Part shown: positions 13,248-38,197 of the stretch, piece after piece
How positions within the stretch are numbered: the stretch's first letter is position 1
Layout: the number at the start of each line of letters is the position of its first letter
Assembly (NCBI GenBank): GCA_964483635.1
Contig: CAZABS010000002.1
Span: 1-40,748 of the forward strand
DNA: 40,748 nucleotides
Direction of reading: 5' to 3'
Origin: an uncultured Bdellovibrionales bacterium
GTDB lineage: Bacteria; Patescibacteriota; Minisyncoccia; Moranbacterales; UBA1568
The notes under the pieces: generated by a model
Database searches by the model: none
Seen by the model: the letters and a program-made list of their open reading frames with translations, nothing else
What the model was told of the DNA's origin: nothing
Made by a program: the position numbers and the translations under genes

Positions 13248-13412
13248 ACCCCTCCCCAAGTAAAACAAAACTTTCCTTTTTTGTGTGGCTTGAACCTTCG
13301 GAAGCATGATTTGTGCGCTGGAGCAATTCCGAACATTCATGTCAGTAAAATATTCTCTGGATATTTTACAGCAATTAAAAGGAAAGTTTTTTTGTGAAAC
13401 ATCATTCATCAT

Positions 13413-13724
13413 ATGCCAAAAGCGTCTCTCAAAAACCAAGTCCTCAATAAGCTCGACCAAGTCCTCGACCCGGAACTTGGAGTTTCCATCAAAGCCTTGG
13501 GTCTCATTTACGAAGTCGCGATTGATGAGAAGAAGCACTGCAAAATCACCATGACCCTCACAACTATTGGCTGTCCCCTCTTTGGCCAAATTCAAAAAGA
13601 AATTGAGGATCGAATCATGGAAATCGACACCATTGATGATGTTGAAATTGAGCTTACTTTTGACCCTGCCTGGAGTCCTGACAAAATGACCCCGGAAGCG
13701 AAAGCAAAACTTGGTCTCGACTAA
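13413..13724 (+). CDS. sufT: SufT/MIP18-family (DUF59) Fe-S assembly protein
   Basis: LDQVLDPELGVSIKALGLIYEV...TMTLTTIGCPL is the hallmark DUF59 motif. It is the last gene of the suf operon. Confidence 0.75.
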   Translation: MPKASLKNQVLNKLDQVLDPELGVSIKALGLIYEVAIDEKKHCKITMTLTTIGCPLFGQIQKEIEDRIMEIDTIDDVEIELTFDPAWSPDKMTPEAKAKLGLD

Positions 13725-21400: not shown

Positions 21401-22039
21401 CGTCGAACCAACTGATACTCCGTCTTGATAGAAATACATCGTGCTTCCGGAACGCACTCCCATGTAATAGTGCCAGTCACCAACAATGGAAGTAGGGGTA
21501 GCAAGAGCATAGGTAGAAGATCCATTTCGGACGACAAACTGCAACTGATTGCTACTCCCGTACTGGAAATAATACCCAGCTGCATTTCCCGTTCCGACCG
21601 CTGTTTTTGAGAGTGGCACGTTGACAGATGAACTCTGATCAACATATCCACTCGTTTTCATCCAAAACCCAACTGAAAAATCACCCGAGCCAAAGTCAAG
21701 CTGACCACCTGCCGGGTCACCAATATGGACATATGCTTGGGTATCCACACCATCTGGCCAGAAACTGAGCGCCTGGCCGACTTTTCCAGCGACTTTCGCC
21801 GGACCGTTGGTTAGTGTTCCATTTGCTCCCGTTGTACTTTTATCGGTTGCGGTTGTTCCAGAGATATCTGCTCCATCGAACGTCCAATAGCCAACCAAAC
21901 CCGATGTAAGCGTACCTGTCTGTGGAGCATTGAGGCGTCCCCCAGCACGAACGGAGAAATACCAATAACTGATGGCTATACCACCAAAGACAACAAACAG
22001 CCCCAGATATTGGATGACGCGGGAACGAGTATGAGACAT
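18488..22039 (-). CDS. Large membrane-anchored surface protein with five tandem LamG (concanavalin-A-like lectin, Laminin_G_3-type) domains
   Basis: N-terminal TM YLGLFVVFGGIAISYWYF, then five ~215-aa units. Each opens with L.GYW.F(D/N) and closes with DEVR.YNR.L...EI..LY. Approximate unit limits are aa 47-262, 286-501, 513-728, 752-964 and 976-1179. Confidence 0.8.
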   Translation of the reverse strand: MSHTRSRVIQYLGLFVVFGGIAISYWYFSVRAGGRLNAPQTGTLTSGLVGYWTFDGADISGTTATDKSTTGANGTLTNGPAKVAGKVGQALSFWPDGVDTQAYVHIGDPAGGQLDFGSGDFSVGFWMKTSGYVDQSSSVNVPLSKTAVGTGNAAGYYFQYGSSNQLQFVVRNGSSTYALATPTSIVGDWHYYMGVRSGSTMYFYQDGVSVGSTAVSGSTSNSEFFQVGSYGAGGPYFNVNGSMDEVRVYNRALAATEIQSLYDLGSSDKINSSISQKQGGGTLANGLAGYWKFDEGTGTSAADASTNANTGTLQGSPIWQSSGKIGTAVTFDGSNDEITTTTNIGDGSSFKMFTLSTWFKTSTASGRKIIGLESNQTGTGSIYYDRDIYIGTDGKVYFRVYDGVSKYATSPSTFNDGNWHHAVGVSNGDNKTIQLYVDGVLQQTTAIGTVYSSYPSSYWRIGGYKVTGLTNNGGDGFFTGDIDEVRVYNRTLSTDEISQLYRLTTPTVVDTSLKGYWSFDGEDVSGTTAFDRSGAGNNGTLTNGPAVTPGAVGQALNFDGTDDYVSVPDADVHSPSVNNMTISTWAKKSGSVSSQTCGTNSGYYLVMKGATSPGWEWALQQMSDSAICFISWTSGGSTIASVTLSRTINDGQWHLYTVAIQTGTRIDFYVDGVLSGSTTSFSGSMSNTTSAITIGARDNGSTGRFGGILDEVRINNRVLSVSEIQSLYASGQSDKVNSAASTPQGVGRLDSGLAGYWRFDDGSGSSATDSSTNGTTLTLTNSPSWSTGKMGTSLTFFPGGSDTNAIASVTDPASGVLDFGSGDFSVAFWAKGRGYTAQGSSGNMLVGKKNVDSSSAAGWYFGINSSSIPQMNVNNGSTEIYPGGGTALSDDAWHHLVGLRAGSTVKLYSDGVLVSSGTLAGNVSNVNSFWVGDDGTGLRNFKGEIDEVRTYNRALSEDEISQLYRIGTPTGTDTSLKGYWSFNGQDVSGTTAYDRSGAGNNGTLTNGPAVTPGKLGQALSFDGSNDYISVPQNGNFNLSSSGFTIALWINKTADGRVISWYDGSKNIQLIASTRDGGVTQMFALKNHAGTFAPQAATASVAIGQWHHVAGTFNGSSYVMYVDGVTSSGSLDGIPSAYTTESTNLYIGQFGGSFGFFSGKLDEVRIYNRALGASEIAALYNQSR
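19008..19205 (-). repeat. Intragenic DNA repeat, copy A (LamG unit 4/5 junction and unit 5 start)
   Basis: Aligns with 20397-20594 at a constant offset of 1389 nt (463 codons). About 75-80% identity by eye, with substitutions of all types. Confidence 0.8.
20397..20594 (-). repeat. Intragenic DNA repeat, copy B (LamG unit 2/3 junction and unit 3 start)
   Basis: Partner of 19008-19205. It encodes QLYRLTTPTVVDTSLKGYWSFDGEDVSGTTAFDRSGAGNNGTLTNGPAVTPG, against QLYRIGTPTGTDTSLKGYWSFNGQDVSGTTAYDRSGAGNNGTLTNGPAVTPG in copy A. Confidence 0.8.
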
Positions 22040-25302: not shown

Positions 25303-26241
25303 CTATAAAAACAACTTAATTCCCGTCGCTGTGACGGCGAGCCAAGTCCCAATCGCGATCAAAACAACGGCTACCGCCTTTTGAAACCAATCCCAAAAGA
25401 ACAGCCGCTCTTGAAAAATCTGTGGAAACCGATAGGAGAGCGGGAGCGCCATCGCCAAGAGGAATGCATATTGCACTCCATTGAGCGCCTGGATAAACGT
25501 GACTGGCCCAAGAAACGTCGCATAGGTAAGAAAAAAAGTTGCCAGCGCACCAAAAACTTTGTTGAGAATAAACCAAAATCCCGTGGTCAAATTATTCCGA
25601 TTGACTGTCGAAAAGGAGGTACATTCTGCCAGAATTGCTCGCCGAAAATCTGGAATGAGGAGAAGGGTTATCCCTCCAAGGATAAAACCAAAACGAGACC
25701 AGACAAGTCCATTTAGAAAGTCCGCATTCTTATAACCAGTTTTGAGAAAAATTAGTGAGAGCGCCATGAGTGACCCAGCCAAGAGAGTCGACTTCATGAT
25801 GGCATCAGTTTGGCGAAGTGGAAGATCAAAAGCAATCAGAAAGGCTCCAGCTAACAGGAGGAATAATGACAAAAAATGCATCGGAGAAAACGGAGCATTT
25901 GCCGCCGGACCGAAAGCGAGCGAGGCAACTCCGGCAATCACCGAAATAATGATGCCAACAAGTGGCGCAACACGAGAAATTTCACTCCGTTTAACGGCGA
26001 TATAAAAAGCTACCAGTCCGTACAAAAAAAAGACTCCGGAAATGAGGAACACCACCGCTGTCTGCCAGCGAATCGCCTGAAATCCAAACGGAATTAAAAA
26101 AACTGCAAAGAGGGAAAAGAGAGAGACAAAGAAAGCATACACCGCAGGTTCTTTAATCCGACCAGCCAAAAGAAACTTATCGAGCAGCGCCGTAACGGCA
26201 TTGAAAAAGTAAGCAACGAGTGCAAATGAAAGCCAAGCCAT
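25303..26241 (-). CDS. Polytopic membrane protein, DMT/EamA-like (about 10 TM)
   Basis: 312 aa, hydrophobic throughout with two similar halves. The family assignment rests on topology and length only. Confidence 0.45.
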   Translation of the reverse strand: MAWLSFALVAYFFNAVTALLDKFLLAGRIKEPAVYAFFVSLFSLFAVFLIPFGFQAIRWQTAVVFLISGVFFLYGLVAFYIAVKRSEISRVAPLVGIIISVIAGVASLAFGPAANAPFSPMHFLSLFLLLAGAFLIAFDLPLRQTDAIMKSTLLAGSLMALSLIFLKTGYKNADFLNGLVWSRFGFILGGITLLLIPDFRRAILAECTSFSTVNRNNLTTGFWFILNKVFGALATFFLTYATFLGPVTFIQALNGVQYAFLLAMALPLSYRFPQIFQERLFFWDWFQKAVAVVLIAIGTWLAVTATGIKLFL

Positions 26242-26328
26242 GAGTATATGTATTTGTTTTCATTATACTCCGAGAGGAACCGGAAACGCTACCCTCTCGA
26301 AGAACTGTGCCCTCAGAAACAGCGATGG

Positions 26329-27054
26329 TTAATCACGATGAACAATTTCCTGATAATAATGATCCACATCAGCGATCCATTTCCGAACACTCTCGGGACT
26401 ATGTGTCGCACAAGAATTCCCACATTTCCAAACAATCATTCGCTCGGGTGTCCCGCTTGATCGAAGATCACGCAACTCAACGAGCCGATTCCCAATCGTT
26501 CGTACCGCCGCTTCTGGAGTAAGCCAGCAGCCATATCCATCAGAGGTCAATCCGCGATCCCCAGCGCCACGATATCCCCAAAAATTGAAACATTCGTCAC
26601 CAGAGAGTTTCGGGGTGCGTTTTCCCCAATTTGATTCTTTTTTCCCAATTCCGACGATCAATCCTGCGATTTCACTGTCATATTTTGAAATTGCCTCTAC
26701 CATAGTCTCGATGGGAAAACCCGCTACCATGTTTCGGATCTGAACCGTTAACTTTTCAGAATCATTTCGAGAATCCTGAACCATTTCATCAGAAAGAGTC
26801 ACCACTTTCCTCAGGGCGAGCATGTCCTCACACGAGAGCGTTTCGGCTTGTACGGGCTCTTTTTGTCGACCTTCTGTTCGAGCAAAAAAGGCAAAATCAT
26901 TTCGAAGAGCACACAGATCAAGCGAGGGCTTTACGGGAGCATTCTGCTGATCAGCTCCCACCGGAACCGCCGAAAACAAAAAAAATGCTCCGGAGAGAAA
27001 CCCTCCAAAAAAAGCCGACATAAAAAAAATCCCCCTTCGAGTACTCTGACCCAT
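26329..27054 (-). CDS. Exported Cys-rich protein, paralog A, with a conserved KKESNWGK...FN(F/Y)WGYRG...WKCG.SC domain (lysozyme/glucosaminidase-like?)
   Basis: Signal or anchor segment FFMSAFFGGFLSGAFFLFSAVPVGA. The ~125-aa C-terminal domain is about half identical by eye to that of 27267-28259. Confidence 0.55.
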   Translation of the reverse strand: MGQSTRRGIFFMSAFFGGFLSGAFFLFSAVPVGADQQNAPVKPSLDLCALRNDFAFFARTEGRQKEPVQAETLSCEDMLALRKVVTLSDEMVQDSRNDSEKLTVQIRNMVAGFPIETMVEAISKYDSEIAGLIVGIGKKESNWGKRTPKLSGDECFNFWGYRGAGDRGLTSDGYGCWLTPEAAVRTIGNRLVELRDLRSSGTPERMIVWKCGNSCATHSPESVRKWIADVDHYYQEIVHRD

Positions 27055-27120
27055 ACTGCTATCTATATCTGTGCGGATTACTCTGTTCGAGAATCTCCCC
27101 TCACTGAAGACGCAAACCCG

Positions 27121-27149
27121 AATCTACTCTAATACGATGATGAAGTCAA
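27121..27149 (-). promoter_or_regulatory. Putative promoter for 26329-27054 (TTGACT-17-TAGATT on the minus strand)
   Basis: Reverse complement of 27144-27149 is TTGACT, followed by a 17-nt spacer; reverse complement of 27121-27126 is TAGATT. It lies about 67 nt upstream of the ATG at 27054 and just downstream of the hairpin at 27197-27216. Confidence 0.4.
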
Positions 27150-27196
27150 TCAAAATTATCCCCAAATTATCACTTTATTGGCTCTATTAAAGCAAA

Positions 27197-27216
27197 ATCT
27201 GCCTACGCAGGCAGAT
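27197..27216 (-). terminator. Putative rho-independent terminator after 27267-28259
   Basis: ATCTGCCT-ACGC-AGGCAGAT is a perfect 8-bp stem. On the minus strand it is followed by TTTGCTTT. It lies 51 nt after the stop codon. Confidence 0.45.
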
Positions 27217-27266
27217 GAATATTATATCACGTTTATTAATTTTTTGCAATACACCTCACCAACCAT

Positions 27267-28259
27267 CTAGCTTCCCTCATTAAGTTGGCTAAAGTAGAGA
27301 TCTACATCCGAAATCCATTTCCGAACACTTTCTCGACTATGACCATCACAACTATAACCACATTTCCAGACAACGAGCTTGGCTGGGGTATTCAGATTTT
27401 CTGAATGGATCAGCTTTTCCAGCCGAACGGCCACCGTATTCACGGCATCCTGGCGACTATTGAAACACGTATGCCCGCCGCTGCCCATGAGGCGCCTGAT
27501 CCCCCGATACCCCCAGTAATTGAAGCAATCTTGTCCCGCGAGCACCGGAATACGCTTTCCCCAATTTGACTCCTTTTTGGCGATACCAATGAGAAATGCG
27601 GCTACGATTCGATCTTGTTCAAGAATATACGGGAGCATATCTTCAATTGGATACCCCTTCACCAGCTCTCTGATCTTCTCGGAATATTCATCTTTGCTTG
27701 CCTCACTAAAAAACTGAAGGAAAAGATCATCGTTGGGGTCGTATTTTTCTGTCTCAGCCAAGAGTTCCTCTTTGAGCGCCGCCTTTTCAGAATCATCTCC
27801 CGAGTTTTCAACAAACGCCGCGCTACTGGCTACAACATTATCCGAAGTCGCAAAGTTTTGGATAATTCCCATTGACACCATACCAAAACTTACCCCGCCG
27901 AGCAGCGACGTGTACAAGAGTCGTTTGGGCGTACCACCAAAAACCGGGAGCAACCGTCCAAAACGTCGGATCACTCGTCGTAAGACGACATATACCCGCC
28001 GAAAAGAATGATGCCCAAATCGACGAAAGTTCTTCCAGGAAAAACTTTCTCGTGTTGGTTGGCGGAGCCTTACTGCATCGAGCTGCTTCCTCGCGTGCTG
28101 CATGCTACTCGTAACGAGAGGTTGCCGAGGGAGTGGCCGAGGTGGATCATAACGCCGACCATAGGCAATACCATCCATCAATACCTTCGCTCGAGAGATT
28201 GGCCGAATTTTTGGAGGAACAACTTCGTGCATACCGTGTTTGTTTTTGTCTTGGGTCAA
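27267..28259 (-). CDS. Bitopic Cys-rich protein, paralog B: basic Pro-rich cytoplasmic N-terminus, one TM, and the same extracytoplasmic KKESNWGK domain
   Basis: TM LLYTSLLGGVSFGMVSMGII at about aa 115-135. C-terminal GIAKKESNWGKRIPVLAGQDCFNYWGYRG...VVWKCGYSCDGHSRESVRKWISDVD parallels paralog A, including four conserved Cys. Confidence 0.55.
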   Translation of the reverse strand: MTQDKNKHGMHEVVPPKIRPISRAKVLMDGIAYGRRYDPPRPLPRQPLVTSSMQHARKQLDAVRLRQPTRESFSWKNFRRFGHHSFRRVYVVLRRVIRRFGRLLPVFGGTPKRLLYTSLLGGVSFGMVSMGIIQNFATSDNVVASSAAFVENSGDDSEKAALKEELLAETEKYDPNDDLFLQFFSEASKDEYSEKIRELVKGYPIEDMLPYILEQDRIVAAFLIGIAKKESNWGKRIPVLAGQDCFNYWGYRGIRRLMGSGGHTCFNSRQDAVNTVAVRLEKLIHSENLNTPAKLVVWKCGYSCDGHSRESVRKWISDVDLYFSQLNEGS

Positions 28260-28265
28260 ACAATA

Positions 28266-28640
28266 TTATTCTGTCTGAATTCCCGCCTTGGTCTTGAAGA
28301 ATTTCATGACATCTGGTTCTCCCACATGACAGGTGCCATTTTCAAAAATCATGGGTACGCCCACGTCTTGCGGACTCAGCTGACATATTTTCACTGCTTC
28401 GTTCATCTGCCGCGCATGCTGCGTGTTATGCCACACTTCGAGTTTCTCAAAAGCAACTTTTTCGGCAATGTTGTTTGCCGCAAGAAATTCAGCCACCCGC
28501 TGACAATGCGGACATTCTTCGCCGTAAAAATACGTCGTGCGCGTCACATCAAATCCGGTTGAAGTATCTTCGTTCATCCCCCACACAGACAACCCAACAA
28601 CAACGAGTATCAGAATACCGACACCAAGGAATACTTTCAT
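28266..28640 (-). CDS. Membrane-anchored thioredoxin/glutaredoxin-fold protein with a CPHC active site
   Basis: N-terminal TM GVGILILVVVGLSVWG. YFYGEECPHCQRVAEFL is a CxxC at the start of helix 1, and CPHC is the DsbA-type dipeptide. ATGA overlap with the lgt stop (28637-28640). Confidence 0.7.
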   Translation of the reverse strand: MKVFLGVGILILVVVGLSVWGMNEDTSTGFDVTRTTYFYGEECPHCQRVAEFLAANNIAEKVAFEKLEVWHNTQHARQMNEAVKICQLSPQDVGVPMIFENGTCHVGEPDVMKFFKTKAGIQTE

Positions 28641-29485
28641 AGTTTGAATTTAGATAGCTCTATTGTATCACGGCGCCAGAAAGAGAGGAAAAGCAGCGTT
28701 CCAATAACGGAAAGTCCTGCCGCCAATACCTGATTGAGCGTCAACCAAGAGAAAATAAGTGGGCTCCCCCTGTCTGGTGCACGGAAAAACTCTAACGCAA
28801 AGCGGATCACCCCATAGCCAATGAGAAAAAAACTCGTCAGCCATCCTGGTTTTAGCACCTTATGAGAAGCGGCAAGTCGTAGGAGCCAATACAGTACCAG
28901 CCCCTCTCCAAACGCTTCATAAAGCTGTGATGGATGTCGAAGAACAGTCGGATCACTGGGAAAATACATCCCCCACGGAACCTCCGTTGCTCGCCCAATG
29001 AGTTCCCGCCCCAGAAAATTACCCAACCGCCCAAAACCAAGTGCAATCGGGATTATTTGCACCAGCATATCTGTGAGCCGGAAGAATGGCCAGTGACGAC
29101 GACGAGCGAGCCACCACCAACCAAGCCCCCCTCCAACCACCCCACCAAAAAAACTCATCCCTCGAATTCCCGTCCAGATTTTATCGTGAACATCATAAGG
29201 AGAAATGATGCGCCACGACTCCTGCCAATATGAATCGTCACCATACACCAATACAAAACCGAGCCGAGCCCCAAGGAGCGTCCCAACCAGCCCCCAGAGC
29301 ACAATATCCGCATAATCGAGAACGGGAAAAAATTTCTGAGCAGGCAACAAAATATAACGAAAATACCACAGAGCCACACTTACTCCCAAAGCAAATGCAA
29401 GCCCGTACCAGGCGAGCGAAAAAAAATCGCCTTGCCACAAGACAGGGTCGATTGAGAGCGGCAAACGAGACCAACTCGTGTCCAT
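28637..29485 (-). CDS. lgt: Prolipoprotein diacylglyceryl transferase (start corrected)
   Basis: From MDTSWSRLPLSIDPVLW.., with FFGGVVGGGLG, GRLGNFLGRELIGR, PWGMYFP and RHPSQLYEA (Lgt signature blocks). The track ORF extends to 29845 but would overlap the AI-2E gene. ATG at 29483-29485 gives 282 aa. Confidence 0.85.
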   Translation of the reverse strand: MDTSWSRLPLSIDPVLWQGDFFSLAWYGLAFALGVSVALWYFRYILLPAQKFFPVLDYADIVLWGLVGTLLGARLGFVLVYGDDSYWQESWRIISPYDVHDKIWTGIRGMSFFGGVVGGGLGWWWLARRRHWPFFRLTDMLVQIIPIALGFGRLGNFLGRELIGRATEVPWGMYFPSDPTVLRHPSQLYEAFGEGLVLYWLLRLAASHKVLKPGWLTSFFLIGYGVIRFALEFFRAPDRGSPLIFSWLTLNQVLAAGLSVIGTLLFLSFWRRDTIELSKFKL

Positions 29486-29487
29486 AG

Positions 29488-30552
29488 CTAGGATGAGGCA
29501 TTGAATTCGCTGAGTTGCCCCTTGAATTCGATCGCGTATATCTCCCAGAGAGCCACAAAGAGCGAAACAATGATCGGTCCAATGATGAACCCAGGGAGTC
29601 CAAAAAATGCGATTCCACCAAGCGTCGCAAAAAACACCGTGAGTGGGTGCATCTGCGTATCTTGCCCCACTAGCTTGGGGCGAAGAATGTTGTCGATAAG
29701 TGAGATCACTCCAAACCCGACCACCAAGAGAAATACACCCTGCCATATTTGACCGAGAAAGAGGAGAATAAGCCCGGCGGGAAGCCACACAATGGCTGAA
29801 CCAATCATCGGGATAATGGAGAGGAGAATCATAAAGAGTCCCCAAATCGAGGGTGACGGAATACCGACAATCCAGAAAGCAATTCCTCCCAAAAGCCCCT
29901 GAATGACTCCTACCACGAGAGTTCCTTTGAGAGTAGCCCGACTCATGGAAACAAATTTCGAAATGAGGAGTTTCTCATGTTCATTTTTCAGTGGAGACAG
30001 TCGCATTCCCCCGGCCAGTGCATTCTTCCCATCGATGAGGAAATAATACAGGGTAAAAAACATCACGAACACCCAGAAAATAAAGTGGGTGATGCTTTGA
30101 TAGGCTGCTTGTAAGAGGCCGAGAGCGTTCTCCCCAAAACGACGGAAATCAACCATGACTTGCTCAGTATTCAGAGTCCGCTCATTAAACAAGAAGTGGA
30201 GATAGGGGGCATCATTCAGTTTTTTCACTGACTGATCGACGAGGCTCGTAAACGTCACTTCTTTACTCATCGTTTCGTACAAACTATTCGCTTCTCCAAT
30301 GGCCAAAGACAGAACAAAGAGAATCGGAGCTACAATAATAAGCGCTACGACCACACAGGTTGCCAGTGATGAAAGTGCACGATGGGCGCGCATCTTCACC
30401 TGGAAAAACTCATAGGTTGGTTTGAAGAGTGCCGCCAGAATAGCTGCGGCAATAATTGCTGTGAGGAACGGTTGGAAAATAAAAAACACCACTCCCCCGA
30501 CAATCAAGAGAATGAGAAAAAAGAAATAAATATTGAGATTGCGCGCTTCCAT
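29488..30552 (-). CDS. AI-2E family transporter (PerM/UPF0118)
   Basis: 354 aa, about 8 TM, with the C-terminal block IDNILRPKLVGQDTQMHPLTVFFATLGG typical of the family. Confidence 0.8.
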   Translation of the reverse strand: MEARNLNIYFFFLILLIVGGVVFFIFQPFLTAIIAAAILAALFKPTYEFFQVKMRAHRALSSLATCVVVALIIVAPILFVLSLAIGEANSLYETMSKEVTFTSLVDQSVKKLNDAPYLHFLFNERTLNTEQVMVDFRRFGENALGLLQAAYQSITHFIFWVFVMFFTLYYFLIDGKNALAGGMRLSPLKNEHEKLLISKFVSMSRATLKGTLVVGVIQGLLGGIAFWIVGIPSPSIWGLFMILLSIIPMIGSAIVWLPAGLILLFLGQIWQGVFLLVVGFGVISLIDNILRPKLVGQDTQMHPLTVFFATLGGIAFFGLPGFIIGPIIVSLFVALWEIYAIEFKGQLSEFNASS

Positions 30553-30563
30553 AAACGATTGAC

Positions 30564-31547
30564 TCAGAGGAGCCGTATAGCCTTATTATACTCGATACGT
30601 GCCTTTTTAGGAAAGGCTGTAAAAGTGACCCCGCCAGAGAGGATTTGGGCGTTGACGAGAGTATATCTCTTCCCCCGGAATTCCCCAACAGCCTGGGGTG
30701 GTCGTACGGAAAGCTTGAGTCCGTACTGATCACGGAAATATGCCTTGATAGCGCTTCGGCTACAGACTGTCCGTGGGAGAAAAAATGGCTTATACCCTCG
30801 TTTCGTCGTCGAGAAATACCGCTGATGACGTTCATGAAGAAAGAGGACGACGTAATCTGGTTTGGGAATAACTAATTTCGTTTTTCGTGCTTTATTCTCC
30901 TTTCGTCCACCCGTTGCGTAATACACACAATTGAGACGGAGCATACAGGCCTCACATTTTGGTCGTGCCGTGCACAAGCTCGAGCCGAAATCCATAAGAG
31001 CGGAATTCAGCCACGGAGCATCTTTCCCAAAAGCTTGATTCAAGCTGTCTTCTTGTCCCTTGACTCGTTCCTTCCCGTCGAAAAAAAATCTCCCAATCAC
31101 TCGCCGCACATTGGTATCCCAGGCGATCTCTGGTGCACCATACGCGAAACTCGCAATGGCCCTCGCTGTATAAGGTCCGATACCAGGGAGTTTTTGAAGC
31201 TCTGCTATTTCACGTGGAAAGACACTAGCGTATTGCTCTCCAATTATTTTTGCCGTAGTAAGCATGTTTCGGCCACGAGCATAGTACCCGAGTCCCTCAT
31301 AATATGGGAGGAATTCTTGCCACGAAACGCGCGCAAGTTTTTGAATCGTCGGAAATCGTCTGAGGAAACGTGTATAATACCCAATCACTCGCGATACCTG
31401 AGTTTGCTGGAGCATCACCTCCGACACCCACACTTCATAGGCTGAGATACCTTTTCTCCTCCATGGCAAATGCTCACGCCCAGATTTCTTGAAAAAATCA
31501 CGAAGTTTCCGGCGAAAGATTCGTAAAGTTGCGTCTGATATTTTCAT
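30564..31547 (-). CDS. mutY: A/G-specific adenine DNA glycosylase MutY (start corrected)
   Basis: EVMLQQTQV, HhH-GPD LPGIGPYTARAI, Fe-S loop CTARPKCEACMLRLNC, and a C-terminal Nudix-like domain. ATG at 31545-31547 forms an ATGA overlap with the mnmA stop. The track start at 31580 lies inside mnmA. Confidence 0.85.
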   Translation of the reverse strand: MKISDATLRIFRRKLRDFFKKSGREHLPWRRKGISAYEVWVSEVMLQQTQVSRVIGYYTRFLRRFPTIQKLARVSWQEFLPYYEGLGYYARGRNMLTTAKIIGEQYASVFPREIAELQKLPGIGPYTARAIASFAYGAPEIAWDTNVRRVIGRFFFDGKERVKGQEDSLNQAFGKDAPWLNSALMDFGSSLCTARPKCEACMLRLNCVYYATGGRKENKARKTKLVIPKPDYVVLFLHERHQRYFSTTKRGYKPFFLPRTVCSRSAIKAYFRDQYGLKLSVRPPQAVGEFRGKRYTLVNAQILSGGVTFTAFPKKARIEYNKAIRLL

Positions 31548-32662
31548 TCTGGCAATATCATTACCCCTCCGCCCAAACAATACTCGCCGTCATAGAATAC
31601 CGCAAACTGACCTGCAGCCACTCCTGAGTCTTCGCCCTGAAGAAGGACTTCGAGCGTCTTCTCATCCTGCCACTGTACCTCACATGGATACTCTTTCGGT
31701 CCATGACGAAGTTTTACAGAAAGCGCTTGACCATCTTCGGGCTTCTCATGAAACCAATTAAGATCGGTCACAAAAAATCTCTCGCGTGAGCATTCCTCTC
31801 GTTCCCTCGCGTGAGAAATAGTAATTGTATTCGCCTCCGGATCTTTCGCCACGACATACCATGGACCACCCGAGAGTCCCAGCCCCTCCCGCTGACCAAT
31901 GGTGTAATACCAAAACCCGGGGTGTGTCCCCAACTTTTTTCCCGTTTCATAATCGAGGATATCCCCTGGTCGTTCACCGAGGTGGAATTTGAGAAACTCA
32001 TCAAATGGAATCTTCCCGAGGAAACAAATTCCCTGGCTGTCTTTGCGCTCCGCATTGGGAAGCTCGAATTTCCGCGCGAGCGCCCTCACCTCTTCTTTGG
32101 TGTAGCTGCCAATCGGAAAGAGCGCTCGGGAAAGTTGACTTCGGGAAAGTTGTGACAGAAAGTACGTTTGATCTTTAATTGCATCCGGAGTTTTTTTCAG
32201 AAAAAATTTTCCTGAACGCTCTCCCACTTGCGCATAATGCCCCGTCGCAACCTTATCAAAACCACCAATACCTTTATCATACCCTTCAACTCCTTTCAGT
32301 TGCTCAGGGTTCGATTTTCCGCTGAGAAAATCAAAAAATGCTCCGAACTTGATACGCGCATTGCAGAGCATATCTGGATTGGGAGTTCGACCTGCTTTCA
32401 CTTCCGCAAGCGTATACGCCACCACGCTCTCCCAGTATTCTTTTTGAAATGGCACTATTTCGAGCGGTACCCCGAGTTTTTCTGTCACTCCACGGACGTA
32501 TGCAAGATCTTCTTCCCATGGACACTCACCAAGAAACGCCAGTTCGTCCTCAAGCCAAATCTTGAGATAAAACGCGGTCACGTCAAAACCCTGGCTTTTG
32601 AGGAGCGCCAATGCCACCGAACTATCCACCCCACCTGAAACGAGAACCGCAATTTTCTGCAT
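31544..32662 (-). CDS. mnmA: tRNA 2-thiouridine(34) synthase MnmA
   Basis: PP-loop IAVLVSGGVDSSVA, KATGHYA-like VATGHYAQV and DQTYFLSQL. Confidence 0.9.
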   Translation of the reverse strand: MQKIAVLVSGGVDSSVALALLKSQGFDVTAFYLKIWLEDELAFLGECPWEEDLAYVRGVTEKLGVPLEIVPFQKEYWESVVAYTLAEVKAGRTPNPDMLCNARIKFGAFFDFLSGKSNPEQLKGVEGYDKGIGGFDKVATGHYAQVGERSGKFFLKKTPDAIKDQTYFLSQLSRSQLSRALFPIGSYTKEEVRALARKFELPNAERKDSQGICFLGKIPFDEFLKFHLGERPGDILDYETGKKLGTHPGFWYYTIGQREGLGLSGGPWYVVAKDPEANTITISHAREREECSRERFFVTDLNWFHEKPEDGQALSVKLRHGPKEYPCEVQWQDEKTLEVLLQGEDSGVAAGQFAVFYDGEYCLGGGVMILPE

Positions 32663-32679
32663 AATCTATTTAAATAGAA

Positions 32680-32711
32680 GAAGCCGGACTTCCAATTGGA
32701 AGTCCGGCTTC
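32680..32711 (-). terminator. 32-nt perfect palindrome (hairpin) after the TraD-like gene; likely terminator or processing site
   Basis: GAAGCCGGACTTCCAA|TTGGAAGTCCGGCTTC pairs base for base across 32680-32711. On the minus strand it is followed by TTCTTCTATTTAAATAG. It lies 53 nt after the stop at 32765 and 18 nt before the mnmA ATG. Confidence 0.5.
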
Positions 32712-32764: not shown

Positions 32765-34765
32765 TCAATTATCGTCTTTCGAACGAGCGCCCTCGATAAT
32801 TGAGCGGACTTCAGCCATATTGATATCTGGCTTTTTTCGGAGATTTTTAAACTTTTTTGGTTCGATATATTGAGCCTGAGAGAGCTTCATCGGAGTTTCT
32901 GCCGAAGCATAGCTCTTCGGCGTGGTCACTCGCTGCGTACTCGTATTTTTTTGAACTTCAGGAGTCTTTGCCGACAAAGTGCCCCCAGAGTGAGACTGCT
33001 CTTCATTTTTTGCCTTCGCTACCGCTCTCTGATAATCCCGAAGACAATCTTTACAAAATGTCGGTCTGGAATCGTCAGGTTCAAATGGTACTTCAATTTC
33101 CATCCCGCACGTTGCACACGTGGCTGGATACAGCACTCTCTCAACAGGAAGAGACGCGGCTGCCACCACAGGAAGAGACACTGACGCCTCAACCTTCTCG
33201 AGAGGAAACTTTTCGGCCACGGAATCAGTCACTGGTTTTTCCGACACTTTTGGAGGCTCTACCACGGTCGGCTTTGACTTTGGTATCTCTGTCTTTTGAA
33301 TCCGATGTTCACCGATCCTTGGTACCATTGACTGAACTCGAACGGGCTCGTTTGAGGTTTTTGATTGAGCGGTTCTCGCGGGCGGTGCCAGAACGGGTTT
33401 TGGGCGCGGACGTTCTTCGGGTCGCCTTTCAGAGACACTCGGTGACTTCGGTGATTGAAGCACGGCTCTCTTTTCTTCAGCAGAAAGCACTCCAGTCCAG
33501 CGCCGAATTTTCTCCTCCACCTCCTCTTTTTTGGTCGCATAGCGATCCCGTGAAACCTTAATCACTTTCTCGTGCGCTCCACTCTCTTCAAGAGCAATCG
33601 GTGGTAAAACGGTCGCACTAAATGCATCTCCCGTTATCCCATCGATCATGAGCTTGAGGTAAATATTGTACTTCGGGAGATTGACGAGATCATTTGGGAG
33701 AAAAATCGGTTCAAATTCTTTTTCGAGGAATTCCGCATCAGCAGCTCCTACCCGAAACGTTACGAGAGTTCCAGCGTTTCCAAACACCGCATCACGCACG
33801 GGTTCTTCGAGTTGGGTAATATACTGATTCGCCAAAATAAGATCAAGTCGATATTTTCGAGCTTCCGATAAAATGTTGGCAAAAGAATCCGTAGCAAAGT
33901 TCTGGAATTCATCAACATACAAGAAGAAATCCTTGCGTTCTTCTTCCGGGATATCCACTCGCCCCATTGCCGCGAGTTGTATTTTCGTAATCATCATTGC
34001 GCCGAGCAGTGCTGTCGAATCTTCTCCTATTTTCCCCTTGGCGAGATTCATGATGAGAATTTTTCGCTCATCCATCGCCTTGCGCACGTCAAAGGCTGAG
34101 GTTGGTTGGCCGATAATATTCCGAATGAGACTATTCGAAGTAAACTGCCCGACTTTGTTTTGGATGGGAGAAATAACCTCTTGGAGCACCCGCTCATTCC
34201 ATCCAGAAAATTCATCTCGCCAAAATGATTTCACCACGGGATCTTCGACTTTTTCAATAACCCGTTCGCGATATGATTTATCCACGAGAATTCGCATCAC
34301 CCCAAGAAGAGTTGACCCGGGATATTCGAGGAGTGCCAGAATTGCATTGCGTAAGATGTACTCGAGCCTCGGCCCCCATGAATCCGCCCAGATTTTTTTA
34401 AAAACTCCCACAAGGCCAGATGCCACAAGCGAACGTTGGTCAGATCCGACTTGTTCGAGCACGTTGAATGCAATCGGGAAATCCTGATCAGCCGGATCAA
34501 AATAAATCACGTCATTTATCCGATTGGCCGGGATGGCCTTGATGAGTTTGAGCGCTGTATCACCGTGCGGATCAATGAAACAAATACCGTGTCCCGCCTG
34601 GATATCTTGGATTGCTAAATTCTCCATGAGGTTGGTTTTCCCCATACCAGTCTTCCCCAAGAGATACATATGCCGCCGCCGATCATCCGCTTTGATACCA
34701 AAAATCCGCTCCTGATTTCGGAAATTCGTTTTGGCAAAAAAGGCGATATCAGAATTTTGGGGCAT
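32765..34765 (-). CDS. TraD/VirD4-like (T4SS coupling-protein family, FtsK-HerA superfamily) ATPase without TM segments, with a C-terminal CxxC-x17-CxxC zinc ribbon
   Basis: Walker A GKTGMGKT (aa 37-44), FFLYVDEFQNF and ARKYRLDLILANQY. A ~120-aa P/E/K-rich linker follows, then CATCGMEIEVPFEPDDSRPTFCKDC (aa 550-574, nt 33044-33118) and a basic tail. Confidence 0.75.
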   Translation of the reverse strand: MPQNSDIAFFAKTNFRNQERIFGIKADDRRRHMYLLGKTGMGKTNLMENLAIQDIQAGHGICFIDPHGDTALKLIKAIPANRINDVIYFDPADQDFPIAFNVLEQVGSDQRSLVASGLVGVFKKIWADSWGPRLEYILRNAILALLEYPGSTLLGVMRILVDKSYRERVIEKVEDPVVKSFWRDEFSGWNERVLQEVISPIQNKVGQFTSNSLIRNIIGQPTSAFDVRKAMDERKILIMNLAKGKIGEDSTALLGAMMITKIQLAAMGRVDIPEEERKDFFLYVDEFQNFATDSFANILSEARKYRLDLILANQYITQLEEPVRDAVFGNAGTLVTFRVGAADAEFLEKEFEPIFLPNDLVNLPKYNIYLKLMIDGITGDAFSATVLPPIALEESGAHEKVIKVSRDRYATKKEEVEEKIRRWTGVLSAEEKRAVLQSPKSPSVSERRPEERPRPKPVLAPPARTAQSKTSNEPVRVQSMVPRIGEHRIQKTEIPKSKPTVVEPPKVSEKPVTDSVAEKFPLEKVEASVSLPVVAAASLPVERVLYPATCATCGMEIEVPFEPDDSRPTFCKDCLRDYQRAVAKAKNEEQSHSGGTLSAKTPEVQKNTSTQRVTTPKSYASAETPMKLSQAQYIEPKKFKNLRKKPDINMAEVRSIIEGARSKDDN

Positions 34766-34825
34766 ACGAGCTAGATACGTTGATCGAGCGAAAAAAGAGT
34801 CTCACAAATGTGAACGTAAACATTC

Positions 34826-36100
34826 CTATTGTACTGGCAAATTGGCTGGTGCGCTACCACGCCGAGTCGCAACCTTCGTCAACGCTGGCGCGGTCATCGT
34901 CATATCTGGAAGATGATAAAGGGTAGCAAGTTCTTCTGATGAAAGGAGAAATCGATTGTTTTGAGGATCAGAATCGCGACCTCGATACCGCCGAAGAAGC
35001 CGTCGCTGCCGATAACGGAGGCGCGAATCAACAAAAAGATAGCTCGCGTAGGTTTTGTGAGCATCATCGGGAATCATGCTGTTTAGATTGAGATCATTAA
35101 ACTGTTTGATCCCGCCAATGAAAGAAGAAACACCCACTTGTTTGGAGAAGCCCTCACGCCGACCGAGATAGACATGCCTCATCTTAATCTTGAACATCGG
35201 CTTTCCGATATTACTTTCCAGCGCTTTCAAAACGTCTTTCTGCCCCGGGGTCAAACGGAACTCAAGCGGCTGCTCTTCCTTCGCGGCCTTTTCAAGAGTT
35301 GTCCACTCGAGCTCTTTCCCCATAAGTCCGGGAGCAAGATTCCCAAACACTTCTCCCAGAGCATGCCACAAACGTGCCAAGACTCCAATGGATTCTTCTT
35401 TGGCGTGTCCGATGTATTCTTCAACGGTAAGTTGTCCTGTTTTCGGTCCCCAATCTTCTTTGACTGGAGTCATGATCAGTTGTAGCCACAAATGCTGCCC
35501 TGGCCCGAGCTTTCCCATGGTTTCGATAAGTCCGCCAAGTGGATCGATCATCTTCCCAGTAACCGACTCTTCAAAAAATTTGTAGGTTCGTATCGGATAC
35601 GCATCCTCTTTCAAGAGTTTGAATTCTACGCCCCAGAGATCCCATTCAGCATTCGGCACCGTGCGAGGAACGTTCTTGGTATAATCTTCGACTTCGACAA
35701 TTTCGATGTCTGGATACTGCGCGTAAAAATGTGCCTCGACGAGATTACGAAACCCCTTCTGGGTTCGAATATAGAAATGAACAATTCCTTCAGTACTCAC
35801 GAGTTCGAGACTAAACGAAACAGGAAATTCCCCTTTCACAAATTCTTCAACAGCATTCGGTGACTTGATCACGCCCGCAAAGCCAGAATAAATAAGCTCC
35901 ATCGGATGTGGGCTCTTTTCAATTTCGCGCGGCGGAATAATCTCGAGAAGTACCCACTCAATTTTTCCCGCGAACTTTCCTTGAACGTGTTCCATCCAAA
36001 GGAAATCCCAGAGCGGGTAAAGCAAAGGAGGCAACACGATATACCACACGTCGTGTGCCACTCCGAGCATGAACGATAAGTTGGACAAGAGTTCGGCCAT
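34826..36100 (-). CDS. Membrane-anchored conserved hypothetical protein, putative partner of the TraD-like ATPase
   Basis: 424 aa. N-terminal hydrophobic segment FMLGVAHDVWYIVLPPLLYPLWDFLWM and C-terminal LLSSEELATLYHLP. It lies 60 nt upstream of the ATPase gene on the same strand. Confidence 0.55.
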   Translation of the reverse strand: MAELLSNLSFMLGVAHDVWYIVLPPLLYPLWDFLWMEHVQGKFAGKIEWVLLEIIPPREIEKSPHPMELIYSGFAGVIKSPNAVEEFVKGEFPVSFSLELVSTEGIVHFYIRTQKGFRNLVEAHFYAQYPDIEIVEVEDYTKNVPRTVPNAEWDLWGVEFKLLKEDAYPIRTYKFFEESVTGKMIDPLGGLIETMGKLGPGQHLWLQLIMTPVKEDWGPKTGQLTVEEYIGHAKEESIGVLARLWHALGEVFGNLAPGLMGKELEWTTLEKAAKEEQPLEFRLTPGQKDVLKALESNIGKPMFKIKMRHVYLGRREGFSKQVGVSSFIGGIKQFNDLNLNSMIPDDAHKTYASYLFVDSRLRYRQRRLLRRYRGRDSDPQNNRFLLSSEELATLYHLPDMTMTAPALTKVATRRGSAPANLPVQ

Positions 36101-36147
36101 CTGAGGCGACTCAAAAAATATTTGTATCGATCGGTGAGTCGTCCGTT

Positions 36148-37212
36148 TTACGACTTACCTACAGTATAGATGTTTTTCCCCACTTTCGTGAAGAAGGTAT
36201 TCAAGTTGATGATAACCGTAGACTTTTTGACTCGACGTACTTTCATAATAGCAGAAAGGATTTCTTCGCGAGACATTGGTTTTGCGCCAGTTTTCAGGAT
36301 ATCAGAAAGGACTTCACGTACCGTACCACGTTTGTATCCCCACTCCGCCAAAGCATACGTTCCGCGACCAACGAGAACAAAGCGCTTGTCTTTAATGAGT
36401 TCATTGTGCACGGTTTGAGGATGCGTTTTCTTGTCGACACGGTAGAGTCCGTATTCATCAATCAACCGAGCTATTTCTCGGAAATGTTTCGGTTCACCCA
36501 ACATTTTCAAAATAAGATACGCGCGCTCACGAGTACCCCGAGGACGGATAGCACTCCACGTTACCAGCCCAAAACGGCCAAAGACATTCTTATCAATTGA
36601 AAGGGCTGGCGCTAAAAAGCTTTCCAATTTTTCTGGAGTTAGTAAGAATTTCTCAAACCGTGAAGAAATTGCATTCGTCAATTCTTCAATCGTCAAGACA
36701 TCCTGGTGTGCACGAAATTTTTCTTCAATGGCCTCAATCAGCTTCTTCCATTCAGAAAGCGAAAAGGTCAGATCAACGACACATTCGTGCCGCTCTTTGT
36801 TTTCCTTGAGAATTTTTGTTCCGGGAAGAGCATGAAGAAATATAGAAAGCGCTCCTCTCTCTTTGGGATCATCATGTGCCAAAACATCGAGCAGGTGTTT
36901 TGTTGGCATAATGAGAGAAGACTTCTCGAGGACTGCTCGAATCCGTTGAACTGGGACGTTCTCACTCTGTTCAGCCAACAGGCGTTTCAAATGTCGTAAC
37001 GACGTATCAATTACTTGGCGTACTCGCTCACGCGTAATTCCATAGATCTTGCCAATTTCTTCAAGTGTCTTGTGGCTCCCATCAGCAACACCAAACCGCG
37101 CAAGGAGAATCTCGCGGGAACGATCAGGAAAACGAGTGAGCAATTGCTCAAGCGCCCGAGTAAAATCAGCGAGCGTCTTTTCGTCCTCTTTTGACTGGTT
37201 CTTTTTTGGCAT
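36148..37212 (-). CDS. Sigma-70 region-4-like HTH protein fused to a HARE-HTH/winged-helix C-terminal region (start corrected)
   Basis: ILLARFGV...KTLEEIGKIYGITRERVRQVIDTSLRHLK (region 4.2-type HTH). YLILKMLGEPKHFREIARLI...VHNELIKDKRFVLVGRGTYALAEWGY (HARE-HTH as in RNAP delta). The track start at 37230 is a TTG. ATG at 37210-37212 gives 354 aa. Confidence 0.6.
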   Translation of the reverse strand: MPKKNQSKEDEKTLADFTRALEQLLTRFPDRSREILLARFGVADGSHKTLEEIGKIYGITRERVRQVIDTSLRHLKRLLAEQSENVPVQRIRAVLEKSSLIMPTKHLLDVLAHDDPKERGALSIFLHALPGTKILKENKERHECVVDLTFSLSEWKKLIEAIEEKFRAHQDVLTIEELTNAISSRFEKFLLTPEKLESFLAPALSIDKNVFGRFGLVTWSAIRPRGTRERAYLILKMLGEPKHFREIARLIDEYGLYRVDKKTHPQTVHNELIKDKRFVLVGRGTYALAEWGYKRGTVREVLSDILKTGAKPMSREEILSAIMKVRRVKKSTVIINLNTFFTKVGKNIYTVGKS

Positions 37213-37247
37213 AAACAATAGGTAAATCAATAGTCACAGGAATACCT

Positions 37248-37277
37248 ATATTAACGCATAATCTTGTTTTTTGTCAA
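37248..37277 (-). promoter_or_regulatory. Putative promoter for 36148-37212 (TTGACA-18-TAATAT on the minus strand)
   Basis: Reverse complement of 37272-37277 is TTGACA; reverse complement of 37248-37253 is TAATAT. The site is in an AT-rich divergent intergenic region. Confidence 0.35.
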
Positions 37278-37347
37278 GAGTCTATAGAAAATACCCTCTT
37301 TTTCGGAATTTTTTCTGAATAAAAAATATATCTGTGCGAATAAATAT

Positions 37348-37376
37348 TTGCCGTTGACAATAAAAGACTCTATAAT
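37348..37376 (+). promoter_or_regulatory. Putative promoter for 37436-38197 (TTGCCG-17-TATAAT)
   Basis: Perfect TATAAT at 37371-37376, with TTGCCG at 37348-37353 and a 17-nt spacer. A 7-bp hairpin ACAGTCA-TTTC-TGACTGT (37404-37421) sits in the predicted leader. Confidence 0.45.
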
Positions 37377-37435
37377 ATCAAGTGAAAAGCAACATCAAAA
37401 AATACAGTCATTTCTGACTGTCAAAAACAAATTGT

Positions 37436-38197
37436 ATGACAGAACCTCTAGACACACTCCCCCAGGATGAGGGTGAGCGTGGAAATAAAATTCAATCACT
37501 TCGAGAAATGATCATGAATGCTGAGCGCACCATCCAAGGTGCCAAGGCGATGCTTTTGCAACTCGAAGGAAAAAAGAAAACTGGTCGCCCAAAAAAGCTC
37601 GACGAGGATGTGGAAGGCACGGTTATCGAGGGTACCTTTGATGGGCAGATTATGCTCGGAACCGACGGAAAACAATATCCCGTTCCGGCTAATTATGCTT
37701 CCAAAAGCAAGCTCGTCGAAGGTGATATGTTGAAACTAACCATTACTCCTGACGGTTCATTCGTGTATAAGCAAATCGGTCCGATTGAGCGCCGGCATGC
37801 TCTCGGTATTGTGAGTCAGGATGAGCATGGCAACTTCCATATCCTCATCGAAGGCGAACCATTCCGAGTGCTCCTGGCCTCAATTACGTATTTCCGTGCT
37901 GAGCCAGGTGACGAAGTGGCGGTGGTTCTCCCTCGCGATCTCGAAGCTTCTTGGGTAGCCATCGAAAACATTCTCCAGAAAGGCGCGAGTCGTATCGCAC
38001 CTCCAGTCAAAAAGAAAAAAGTGGCGATCGATGACTGGAAAAAGGAACTCGAAAATGAAGCACCGGGTATTCCGCAAGAACCAATCACTGCCGATCAAGA
38101 AATCGTCACACCAAAAAATGAAGTCCTCTCACCGCTCGATGCTTGGGTACGTGACATGGAAAAAATGGAGCAGCAAGAAAGCGCCCCTCAACAATAA
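37436..38197 (+). CDS. Hypothetical protein with an N-terminal coiled coil, an AT-hook-like KKTGRPKK motif and a beta-rich core
   Basis: 253-aa ORF with its own promoter and short leader. No family recognised. Acidic C-terminal tail. Confidence 0.5.
   Translation: MTEPLDTLPQDEGERGNKIQSLREMIMNAERTIQGAKAMLLQLEGKKKTGRPKKLDEDVEGTVIEGTFDGQIMLGTDGKQYPVPANYASKSKLVEGDMLKLTITPDGSFVYKQIGPIERRHALGIVSQDEHGNFHILIEGEPFRVLLASITYFRAEPGDEVAVVLPRDLEASWVAIENILQKGASRIAPPVKKKKVAIDDWKKELENEAPGIPQEPITADQEIVTPKNEVLSPLDAWVRDMEKMEQQESAPQQ

Follow-up and report, generated by a model that had tools for sequence, protein, structure and literature searches.

The window, the whole 40,748-nucleotide (nt) stretch of contig CAZABS010000002.1 from an uncultured bacterium of the Patescibacteria order Moranbacterales, carries three minus-strand open reading frames (ORFs) of one direction. 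These encode a helix-turn-helix (HTH) protein of 354 amino acids (aa; 36148-37212), a DUF8128 (PF26449) protein of 424 aa (34826-36100) and an ATPase of 666 aa (32765-34765), and a fourth gene, p253 (37436-38197, plus strand), is linked to this module. As judged from its sequence, the ATPase is a motor of the coupling-protein type (TrwB/VirD4) without a membrane anchor of its own, and in the predicted structure the DUF8128 protein, the anchor, has a fold like the N-terminal domain of VirB4, an assignment made at the level of the domain. Sequence comparisons gave strong evidence that the two proteins would work as one unit. In this unit a VirB4-like N-terminal half is joined to a VirD4-like motor, an architecture that neither canonical family has. 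We tentatively propose, with a little less than even confidence, that it is a split, membrane-tethered motor whose anchor is a homologue of the VirB4 N-terminal domain, and that it probably hands a nucleic-acid substrate to a type IV secretion system (T4SS) encoded at a distant place on the chromosome.

The ATPase comprises a motor core (aa 1-420), a disordered linker of ~130 aa, a zinc ribbon and a tail. Its Walker A motif GKTGMGKT (aa 37-44, 34634-34657), Walker B motif FLYVDEF (aa 281-287, 33905-33925) and the sequence ARKYRLDLILANQ (aa 302-314) were located, and Pfam families of type IV coupling proteins (T4CPs) were matched, namely TrwB_AAD_bind (PF10412; 2.4e-7, 30.4 bits against a cut-off of 20.5) and TraG-D_C (PF12696; 2.2e-5, 24.8 bits against 22), with DUF87 (PF01935) also above its gathering score. 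The TraD/TraG/VirD4 signature described in an earlier prediction from the sequence of the window (the original prediction) was therefore recovered. The ATPase profile aligned with TrwB over 325 columns (TrwB residues 110-483; probability 95.9%, E 5e-9), while with TrwK only 34 columns around the P-loop aligned. Among PDB sequences TrwB and DotL (4.7e-4) were matched. In the Pfam scan the ATPase showed no match to P-loop_TraG, AAA_10 or CagE_TrbE_VirB, and none to the FtsK/SpoIIIE families PF01580 and PF09397. The NCBIfam equivalog cut-offs were missed by a wide distance (TIGR03743, 54 bits against 366; NF045973, 24.7 against 250). A role as a replacement for FtsK is weakened by the separate canonical and essential FtsK of Southlakia epibionticum. 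An anti-phage defence system was also considered and rejected, as the PADLOC matches of the ATPase to mad8 (9e-16, aa 17-369) and HerA were judged to be generic similarity of ATPase domains; the DUF8128 protein, the HTH protein and p253 matched no defence-system component in PADLOC.

The P-loop starts at aa 37 and so leaves no space for a transmembrane (TM) domain, and the best 19-residue Kyte-Doolittle mean in the ATPase was 1.39, in agreement with the predicted lack of a TM anchor. The treble-clef zinc ribbon CxxC-x17-CxxC, with its four cysteines, lies at aa 550-574 (33044-33118), where it had been predicted, and the region aa 543-576 matched PF23477 (9e-12, 44.9 bits, cut-off 27) and TIGR04272 (1.4e-12, 47.2 bits, cut-off 36). 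The regions around the ribbon had been described as a P/E/K-rich linker and a Lys-rich tail; the linker is rich in P, V, S and E, and in the tail Lys is enriched only slightly (13% K).

The 424-aa protein had its closest homologues in Candidatus Moranbacteria, and all homologues listed, which were up to 92% identical, carried PF26449.1 (DUF8128); the PF26449 assignment of the window protein goes through this precomputed annotation. The family yielded 2,365 cluster representatives in an exhaustive profile search (850 at E <1e-30), and the named members belonged to Komeili-, Kerfeld- and Falkowbacteria and to the 'Parcubacteria' and 'Patescibacteria' groups. The AlphaFold2 model reached a pLDDT of 93.6 and a pTM of 0.87 on an alignment of 150 sequences, against a pLDDT of 53 on 21 close homologues, and displayed, after a long helix at the N-terminus (aa 2-46), an alpha/beta region of ~380 aa that is assigned to the cytoplasm. 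The hydrophobic part of this helix (~aa 8-40, 35981-36079) is a putative single TM anchor. Its Kyte-Doolittle score was TM-like (>=1.6) in 82% of 150 family members and borderline (1.34) in the window copy, and the model together with these relatives supports the hydrophobic N-terminal segment that had been predicted. Near the C-terminus, the motif EELAT..H.P was invariant or almost so.

When the model was compared with the PDB by Foldseek, the top 14 matches were all full-length R388 TrwK/VirB4 chains (E 6e-5 to 1.4e-2, the first 12 below 1e-3; probability 0.9-1.0; TM-score 0.32-0.38). The VirB4 structure restricted to the C-terminal domain (4AG5), TrwB and other RecA-like ATPases were absent among the 50 PDB matches listed. 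Since DUF8128 has no P-loop and these structures were unmatched, the match is to the N-terminal domain of VirB4, a likeness that the original prediction had missed. In TrwK this domain spans residues 15-400, a size similar to that of the DUF8128 domain, and in the R388 system VirB4 dimerises through it, VirB3 wraps around it at the membrane, and the tails of VirB8 touch the outer VirB4 subunit (PMC9259494). Among the viral models of BFVD, the best DUF8128 relatives were gp156 of Bacillus phage G (1.7e-17) and a 913-aa protein of phage JL from the SPO1 gp27.4 family (2.3e-15); the VirB4-like gp155 of phage G was also matched. The DUF8128 profile gave no signal against pGO1 TrsD, pGO1 TrsE, R388 TrwK or phage G gp155, single-sequence targets for which sensitivity is low, and found nothing among PDB sequences.

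Many homologues encode the two proteins as one. The family phrog_5156 was matched by both halves in order, by the 424-aa protein at positions 27-204 (2.1e-8) and by the ATPase at positions 408-806 (2.4e-63). Phage G gp156 (825 aa) likewise holds both modules, with the DUF8128 profile aligned to aa 7-322 (probability 98.2%, the EEL..H.P motif included) and the motor profile to aa 377-755 (E 7e-36). A search with gp156 recovered >90 Patescibacteria proteins of 725-1,140 aa that carry PF26449 together with PF10412, PF01935 or PF12696, and such fused proteins were found in Berkel-, Falkow-, Gottesman- and Saccharibacteria. In BLASTP the two window proteins were collinear with the fusions. In the fused protein P0415 the DUF8128 domain ends at residue 382 and the motor begins at 387, thus the window proteins are split exactly at the domain boundary. 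In ABY1, the stop codon of the DUF8128 gene and the start of the ATPase gene are 3 nt apart. The suggestion that an anchor is supplied in trans by the upstream 424-aa protein is supported by these fusions, in which both form one collinear polypeptide. Nearly every complete split-type orthologue carried the zinc ribbon, and none of the fused homologues examined had it.

The phage family (SPO1 gp27.4, JL gp150, G gp156, phrog_5156 and, according to Pathria et al., 2012, orf201 of 0305phi8-36) shares both modules with the window and their order, with the T4CP-type motor placed after DUF8128. It differs from the window proteins in being fused, mostly without an N-terminal TM helix and without the zinc ribbon, and its motor is just 24-30% identical to that of the window. 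The genomic context differs as well. The phage genes lie beside a MobC/Replic_Relax relaxase and an actin-like protein, and in SPO1-like phages the fused gene is flanked by an actin-like partition gene on one side and a Replic_Relax nickase on the other, whereas the window module, in a window with no Replic_Relax match, lies beside the HTH and p253 genes. By analogy, the relaxase neighbours of the phage proteins suggest DNA as the substrate, for the HTH-linked subfamily of the window through its relatives only. The 39 Patescibacteria relaxase genes that are found near t4cp genes (PMC12102498) also suggest a DNA substrate. In 0305phi8-36 the 'DNA translocation operon' encodes a MobC-type relaxase and a VirD4-like coupling ATPase lacking a TM domain, and its deletion gave no detectable growth defect in laboratory propagation (Pathria et al., 2012; PMC3357382). 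In the jumbo phage G, gp155, a VirB4-type ATPase (P-loop_TraG/AAA_10), is encoded directly upstream of the fused gp156 (L084:2220-6362 for the pair), and the same N-terminal fold was predicted for both.

Conservation of the module was analyzed in 80 loci obtained from a scan of species-representative genomes, almost all of them Moranbacteria metagenome-assembled genomes. The HTH, DUF8128 and ATPase genes were collinear in 80/80 of these loci, wherever the contig reaches, and the 424-aa family is thus syntenic with the ATPase in other genomes as the original prediction implied. Identities to the window were 66-95% for the ATPase core, 48-77% for DUF8128 and mostly 39-62% for the HTH protein; dnaX on the same contigs was less conserved than the ATPase core (44-57%, full-length matches). 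Among 69 split orthologues, 153 of the 425 core columns were invariant and Walker A was kept in 69/69, and the Walker motifs are intact, not degenerate, on alignment. Three long ABY1-type contigs carried SecDF, HTH, DUF8128 and ATPase genes in this order, followed by mnmA within one to three further genes, and their ATPase core was 66-67% identical to that of the window. Since mnmA is kept nearby across classes, part of this synteny reflects ancestral gene order and not function. Taken from these sequence comparisons, the module is a chromosomal, vertically inherited core locus under strong purifying selection. In two ABY1-type loci (L085:492-1255 and L086:986-1360), small T4SS_pilin (PF18895) genes follow directly after dnaX, ~9 kb upstream of the module; the window ends just past dnaX and tRNA-Gln, short of the equivalent position.

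The relationship of the family to plasmid T4CPs and to phage genes could also be explained if the module were what is left of a decayed conjugative element or prophage and was kept by chance. This explanation is scarcely credible and is refuted by the conservation data. The ORFs are intact, Walker A is invariant across orthologues, and the ATPase core is better conserved over 80 species than dnaX. The module occupies the same chromosomal position across Moranbacteria, its GC content equals that of the window and of the genome, and no integrase, repeat or tRNA boundary was found at its ends. The earlier view that this is not a decayed mobile element is in accordance with all of these results.

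In the published tables for S. epibionticum (Saccharimonadia), SEML1_0294 has the same HTH domains as the window protein (Sigma70_r4 at aa 27-72 and HARE-HTH at aa 225-283, against aa 26-76 and 229-291 here) and lies directly upstream of the ATPase gene SEML1_0293. The latter differs from the window ATPase in its fused arrangement, as it has 921 aa with TrwB_AAD_bind at aa 402-719 and the motor from ~aa 400; from these domain positions and the many fused Patescibacteria proteins, we infer that its N-terminus is DUF8128. Both genes were flagged as 'core' and 'Patescibacteria-enriched'. Published transposon sequencing (Tn-seq) found SEML1_0294 essential and SEML1_0293 non-essential, although the normalised reads of the latter dropped from 5,817 to 1,372 across the time points. 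We regard the module as a vertically inherited accessory function found across the phylum; where it was tested, in laboratory co-culture, it proved dispensable.

Patescibacteria are reported to have about two T4CP homologues in each genome (PMC12102498). A 945-aa Saccharibacteria protein with PF26449 (P0446) has neighbours matching those of another S. epibionticum paralogue, SEML1_0142, namely a YifB-like gene, a small upstream ORF without TM segments and gyrase, and by this synteny it appears to be the SEML1_0142 orthologue. SEML1_0142 and the small upstream ORF SEML1_0141 are essential by Tn-seq, unlike the HTH-linked paralogue; the same arrangement of a small non-TM ORF and a fused paralogue, between the YifB-like gene and gyrase, was seen at L092:7651-10838. 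The DUF8128-ATPase family therefore appears to have diversified, with at least one essential member. Two tandem fused DUF8128-T4CP paralogues (~830 and ~930 aa) were also seen in Berkelbacteria-like contigs (L095:2556-8784 and L096:1941-8348), each preceded by a small ORF, and the pair adjoins SecDF. Such small ORFs upstream of fused paralogues were considered as VirB3 analogues and rejected, as they have no TM segments and one of them belongs to the p253 family.

The HTH protein matched Sigma70_r4 (1.7e-12) and HARE-HTH (3.1e-11) and resembles sigma region 4 and the delta subunit of RNA polymerase. Its length is counted from an ATG, with a TTG at 37230 as another possible start. Pfam found no sigma region 2 in it, and all NCBIfam sigma models were far below their cut-offs. 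Its gene stands upstream of DUF8128 in all Moranbacteria loci with enough contig and in the ABY1 loci. In 18 metagenome loci the gene just before a DUF8128-ATPase gene codes for a homologue of the HTH protein; most of these ATPase genes are fused by the criterion of a single alignment, while L159 looks split. The HTH protein holds the position of the relaxase in the phages, and the idea that it is a diverged MobC-type relaxase was rejected, as it showed no profile similarity to SPO1 gp27.3 and the published domains of SEML1_0294 are all HTH or winged-helix.

The p253 protein has an N-terminal coiled coil and two beta-rich repeats with the motif YPVPANYASKSKLV. Its gene is divergent from the HTH gene and lies just outside the region covered by the original prediction, where it had been missed. 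It adjoins the module in 55/80 Moranbacteria loci. The ORF directly upstream of the fused DUF8128-ATPase genes in L095 (5455-5991) and L096 is 46% identical to p253 (E 9e-53). In L146 and L154, p253, HTH and fused ATPase genes are all co-directional, and in L143, L149 and L153 p253 is followed by the fused ATPase gene. As a fourth gene, p253 is thus linked to the module in three different arrangements. No p253 relatives were found in Pfam, the PDB, PHROG or NCBIfam, and its profile gave coiled-coil noise against the PDB and Pfam.

This linkage allows a different explanation, in which the ATPase, together with the HTH protein as an RNA polymerase factor, is associated with transcription or the nucleoid and remodels or tethers DNA or polymerase at the membrane without any transport. 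The adjacency of HTH and ATPase genes in at least three classes, both split and fused, the resemblance of the HTH protein to polymerase components and the co-directional cluster of p253, HTH and fused ATPase genes are consistent with it. We nevertheless consider it improbable, as the motor family is otherwise known only from translocases, the paralogues and phage homologues have no HTH neighbour, and the synteny with mnmA indicates that gene order here is partly ancestral. The HTH gene of S. epibionticum is essential and the ATPase gene is not, so the HTH protein has a role beyond the motor. The description of the HTH protein as the module's own is accordingly uncertain.

The module had been regarded as an orphan, minimal and self-contained device, a description that is not supported. 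A VirB4-TrsD-VirB3 set is encoded elsewhere in Moranbacteria, and a close fused relative lies beside PrgI/VirB4. With T4SS genes elsewhere in the genome, the module is 'orphan' in position only, and since a single TM helix cannot itself be a channel, a self-sufficient device is not supported. The tables of PMC12102498 list VirB4 in most Moranbacteria. For the genome of locus L080 they give VirB4-TrsD-VirB3 elsewhere together with two T4CP matches, and the DUF8128 neighbour is not called TrsD; in Table S3 the neighbours of both T4CP matches in GCA_000990585.1 are not called TrsD.

Association of the family with T4SS genes was observed in the P0481 clade. These proteins are fused and TM-less, their motor is 53% identical to that of the window, and their genes lie divergently beside PrgI/VirB3 and VirB4, near dnaN in L094. 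VirB4/PrgI neighbours were found in L094 and then in L097, L099, L100 and L107, the four closest metagenome loci with enough flank; more distant P0481-related metagenome loci had no such neighbours. Family members can therefore be T4SS-associated.

According to the mechanism that we propose, the ATPase and DUF8128 genes would be transcribed after the HTH gene, with p253 linked to them. At the cytoplasmic membrane, the DUF8128 half would tether and position the motor, which is presumably hexameric, much as the VirB4 N-terminal domain does on VirB3/VirB8 in T4SSs. The conserved C-terminal DUF8128 peptide EELAT..H.P...AP.NLP may dock on the ATPase and so replace the covalent link of the fused forms. 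ATP hydrolysis by the motor would then feed a substrate, most likely DNA or nucleoprotein captured by the zinc-ribbon tail, into an envelope conduit, for which a chromosomal VirB4-type T4SS encoded elsewhere in the genome is the most likely candidate.

Several observations weigh against this proposal. Across the >80 loci examined, the split-type module had no T4SS gene within 10 kb, which also answers the question whether this ATPase clade always lies inside complete T4SS or integrative and conjugative element loci. No relaxase or mating-pair genes were found within 10 kb in Moranbacteria and ABY1 loci, and the window itself has no relaxase. Only 148 of 5,713 Patescibacteria T4CP homologues are near virB4 (PMC12102498). 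The T4SS of S. epibionticum is essential (PMC10633639) and the HTH-linked fused SEML1_0293 is not, so what makes the T4SS essential can proceed without SEML1_0293. The putative orthology of SEML1_0293 to the window pair was taken from its HTH neighbour and domain positions. The fused protein also occurs in Bacillus phages, which have no T4SS channel, and the relation to the VirB4 N-terminal domain comes from predicted structure (TM-score 0.32-0.38) with no sequence-profile signal.

Part of this evidence is consistent with a T4SS-independent, membrane-tethered DNA translocase that serves uptake, as a motor behind ComEC, or export, or the handling of replicating or partitioning DNA, with the HTH protein and p253 as DNA-binding accessories. 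It would account for the lack of T4SS genes near the module and for the phages without a channel, which carry the fused protein beside a nickase and an actin-like partition protein. Genes with a DNA-related role recur beside the module, namely the HTH gene and, in the window and L093, dnaX; comEC and SEML1_0293 are both dispensable for growth of S. epibionticum, and nucleic-acid binding would fit the sequences of the zinc ribbon and of the basic tail. However, the module contains a single TM helix and nothing that could form a channel, linkage to comEC, comF or dprA was not seen in the loci examined, and the gene of a close relative adjoins VirB4/PrgI. In S. epibionticum the canonical essential FtsK already fills a segregation role. 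We regard this explanation as the main rival of our proposal, although it is rather unlikely.

The substrate might instead be protein, the motor being a coupling ATPase for the export of effectors or pilins through the Patescibacteria T4SS and the zinc ribbon and linker a protein adaptor. In most genomes the Patescibacteria T4SS has no relaxases and is thought to export proteins or to serve otherwise (PMC10633639; PMC12102498), and T4CPs that translocate effectors, such as DotL, belong to the same family, as the PDB sequence match indicates. The phage relatives, however, pair with a relaxase, the HTH partner is a DNA-binding protein, and SEML1_0293 is non-essential in an organism in which the T4SS and its pilins are essential. 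Protein export consequently has a low probability in our view.

The proposed T4SS-coupled motor shares with the T4CPs (VirD4/TrwB/TraD/TraG) the RecA-like motor of the FtsK-HerA superfamily and the TrwB_AAD_bind and TraG-D_C signatures. T4CPs have an N-terminal two-helix TM domain in the same chain, while the window ATPase has none and its anchor is the separate 424-aa protein; it also adds a zinc-ribbon tail and, unlike T4CPs, has no adjoining relaxase or mating-pair genes. With VirB4/TrwK the unit shares an N-terminal domain of ~380-400 aa followed by a RecA-like ATPase. It differs in that the motor half is not VirB4-type, no VirB3 gene adjoins, and no sequence similarity of DUF8128 to TrwK, TrsE or TrsD was detected. 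A VirB3/PrgI-type small membrane partner was not found in the window. The TM-less coupling protein TraJ of pIP501, which is recruited by the separate membrane protein TraI, is a precedent for a separate anchor; TraJ/TraI differs in being part of a complete plasmid conjugation operon.

Orphan T4CPs and the DUF8128 family name are already on record. Quinonero-Coronel et al. (2025; PMC12102498) counted 5,713 VirD4-type homologues in 2,918 Patescibacteria genomes and proposed possible exaptation, and the window ATPase belongs to this set of orphan homologues. The passages of that paper used here describe no DUF8128 partner or fusion, no VirB4-N-terminal-domain-like fold and no linkage to HTH or p253 genes. 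In the literature searched we found neither the fused/split architecture nor the VirB4-like anchor, nor any linkage to HTH and p253 genes.

Patescibacteria, which rely on host cells, account for a large part of bacterial diversity. Their T4SS is essential where tested, yet its gene cluster has no recognised coupling protein. Thousands of unexplained 'orphan' coupling-protein homologues are now given an anatomy, a VirB4-like anchor and a VirD4-like motor that are fused or split, which bears on the evolutionary relation of VirB4 and coupling proteins. The fixed partners (an essential HTH protein and p253) and the phage relatives that adjoin relaxases lead to specific experiments in tractable Saccharibacteria. 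A more speculative idea, which we think unlikely, is that DUF8128 with its T4CP-type motor represents a third and hitherto unrecognised lineage of T4SS-related ATPases, a hybrid of VirB4 N-terminal domain and VirD4 motor that preserves the ancestral architecture of VirB4 and coupling proteins before their divergence, and that with the HTH protein and p253 it forms a dedicated nucleic-acid trafficking system. If true, such a system could underlie DNA exchange with, or acquisition from, the hosts of these nucleotide-auxotrophic epibionts.

In the window, the three genes were present with intact motifs as originally described. The intergenic region 37213-37435, between the divergent HTH and p253 genes, has 27.8% GC against 47% for the window, in agreement with the predicted AT-rich divergent promoter region. 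A consensus scan identified in it a candidate sigma-70-like promoter upstream of the HTH gene (TTGACA-18-TAATAT, 37248-37277, minus strand; 10/12 matches), which is a pattern match only; the HTH gene would be the first gene of the operon. The predicted 32-nt perfect palindrome downstream of the module was found at 32680-32711. It is strand-neutral, and TCTATTT follows on the minus strand; with this T-rich tail it scores as a minus-strand terminator and is likely an intrinsic terminator closing the operon. No copies of it occurred in 94 related loci, so it is not a conserved element. The Rfam scan of the window matched a tRNA and nothing else.

The other ORFs of the window with at least 150 aa are housekeeping, envelope or unassigned genes and include ProS-like, HtrA-like, PpiC, Dus, Suf, PFOR, XseA, Lgt, MutY, MnmA, GtrA and DnaX. 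None of the window ORFs of this size in the 40.7 kb has a VirB4, relaxase, pilin or integrase domain, and the predicted absence of a conjugation apparatus was upheld to this extent. The module had been described as flanked by housekeeping genes, which is correct for mnmA/mutY and dnaX, but p253 and a GtrA-like gene sit between the HTH gene and dnaX. The listed mnmA and mutY-like ORFs overlap by 37 nt (31544-31580); the mutY-like ORF has a TTG start, and its HhH-GPD domain begins at residue 52. In the region 28637-30552 (minus strand), the Lgt ORF as listed, with a TTG start at 29845, shares ~360 nt with the AI-2E transporter ORF upstream of it. Its Lgt domain starts only at residue 134, so the true start is probably further downstream.

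Three successive minus-strand ORFs of 312, 241 and 330 aa (25303-28259) had no Pfam match at E <=1e-5. The same was true of a 205-aa ORF (12978-13595) and of a 251-aa ORF (3257-4012) located between two HtrA-like protease genes. A 1,183-aa protein (18488-22039, minus strand) with five Laminin_G_3/concanavalin-like lectin repeats (E 5e-120) is followed by a VanZ-like gene and is probably a large surface adhesin.

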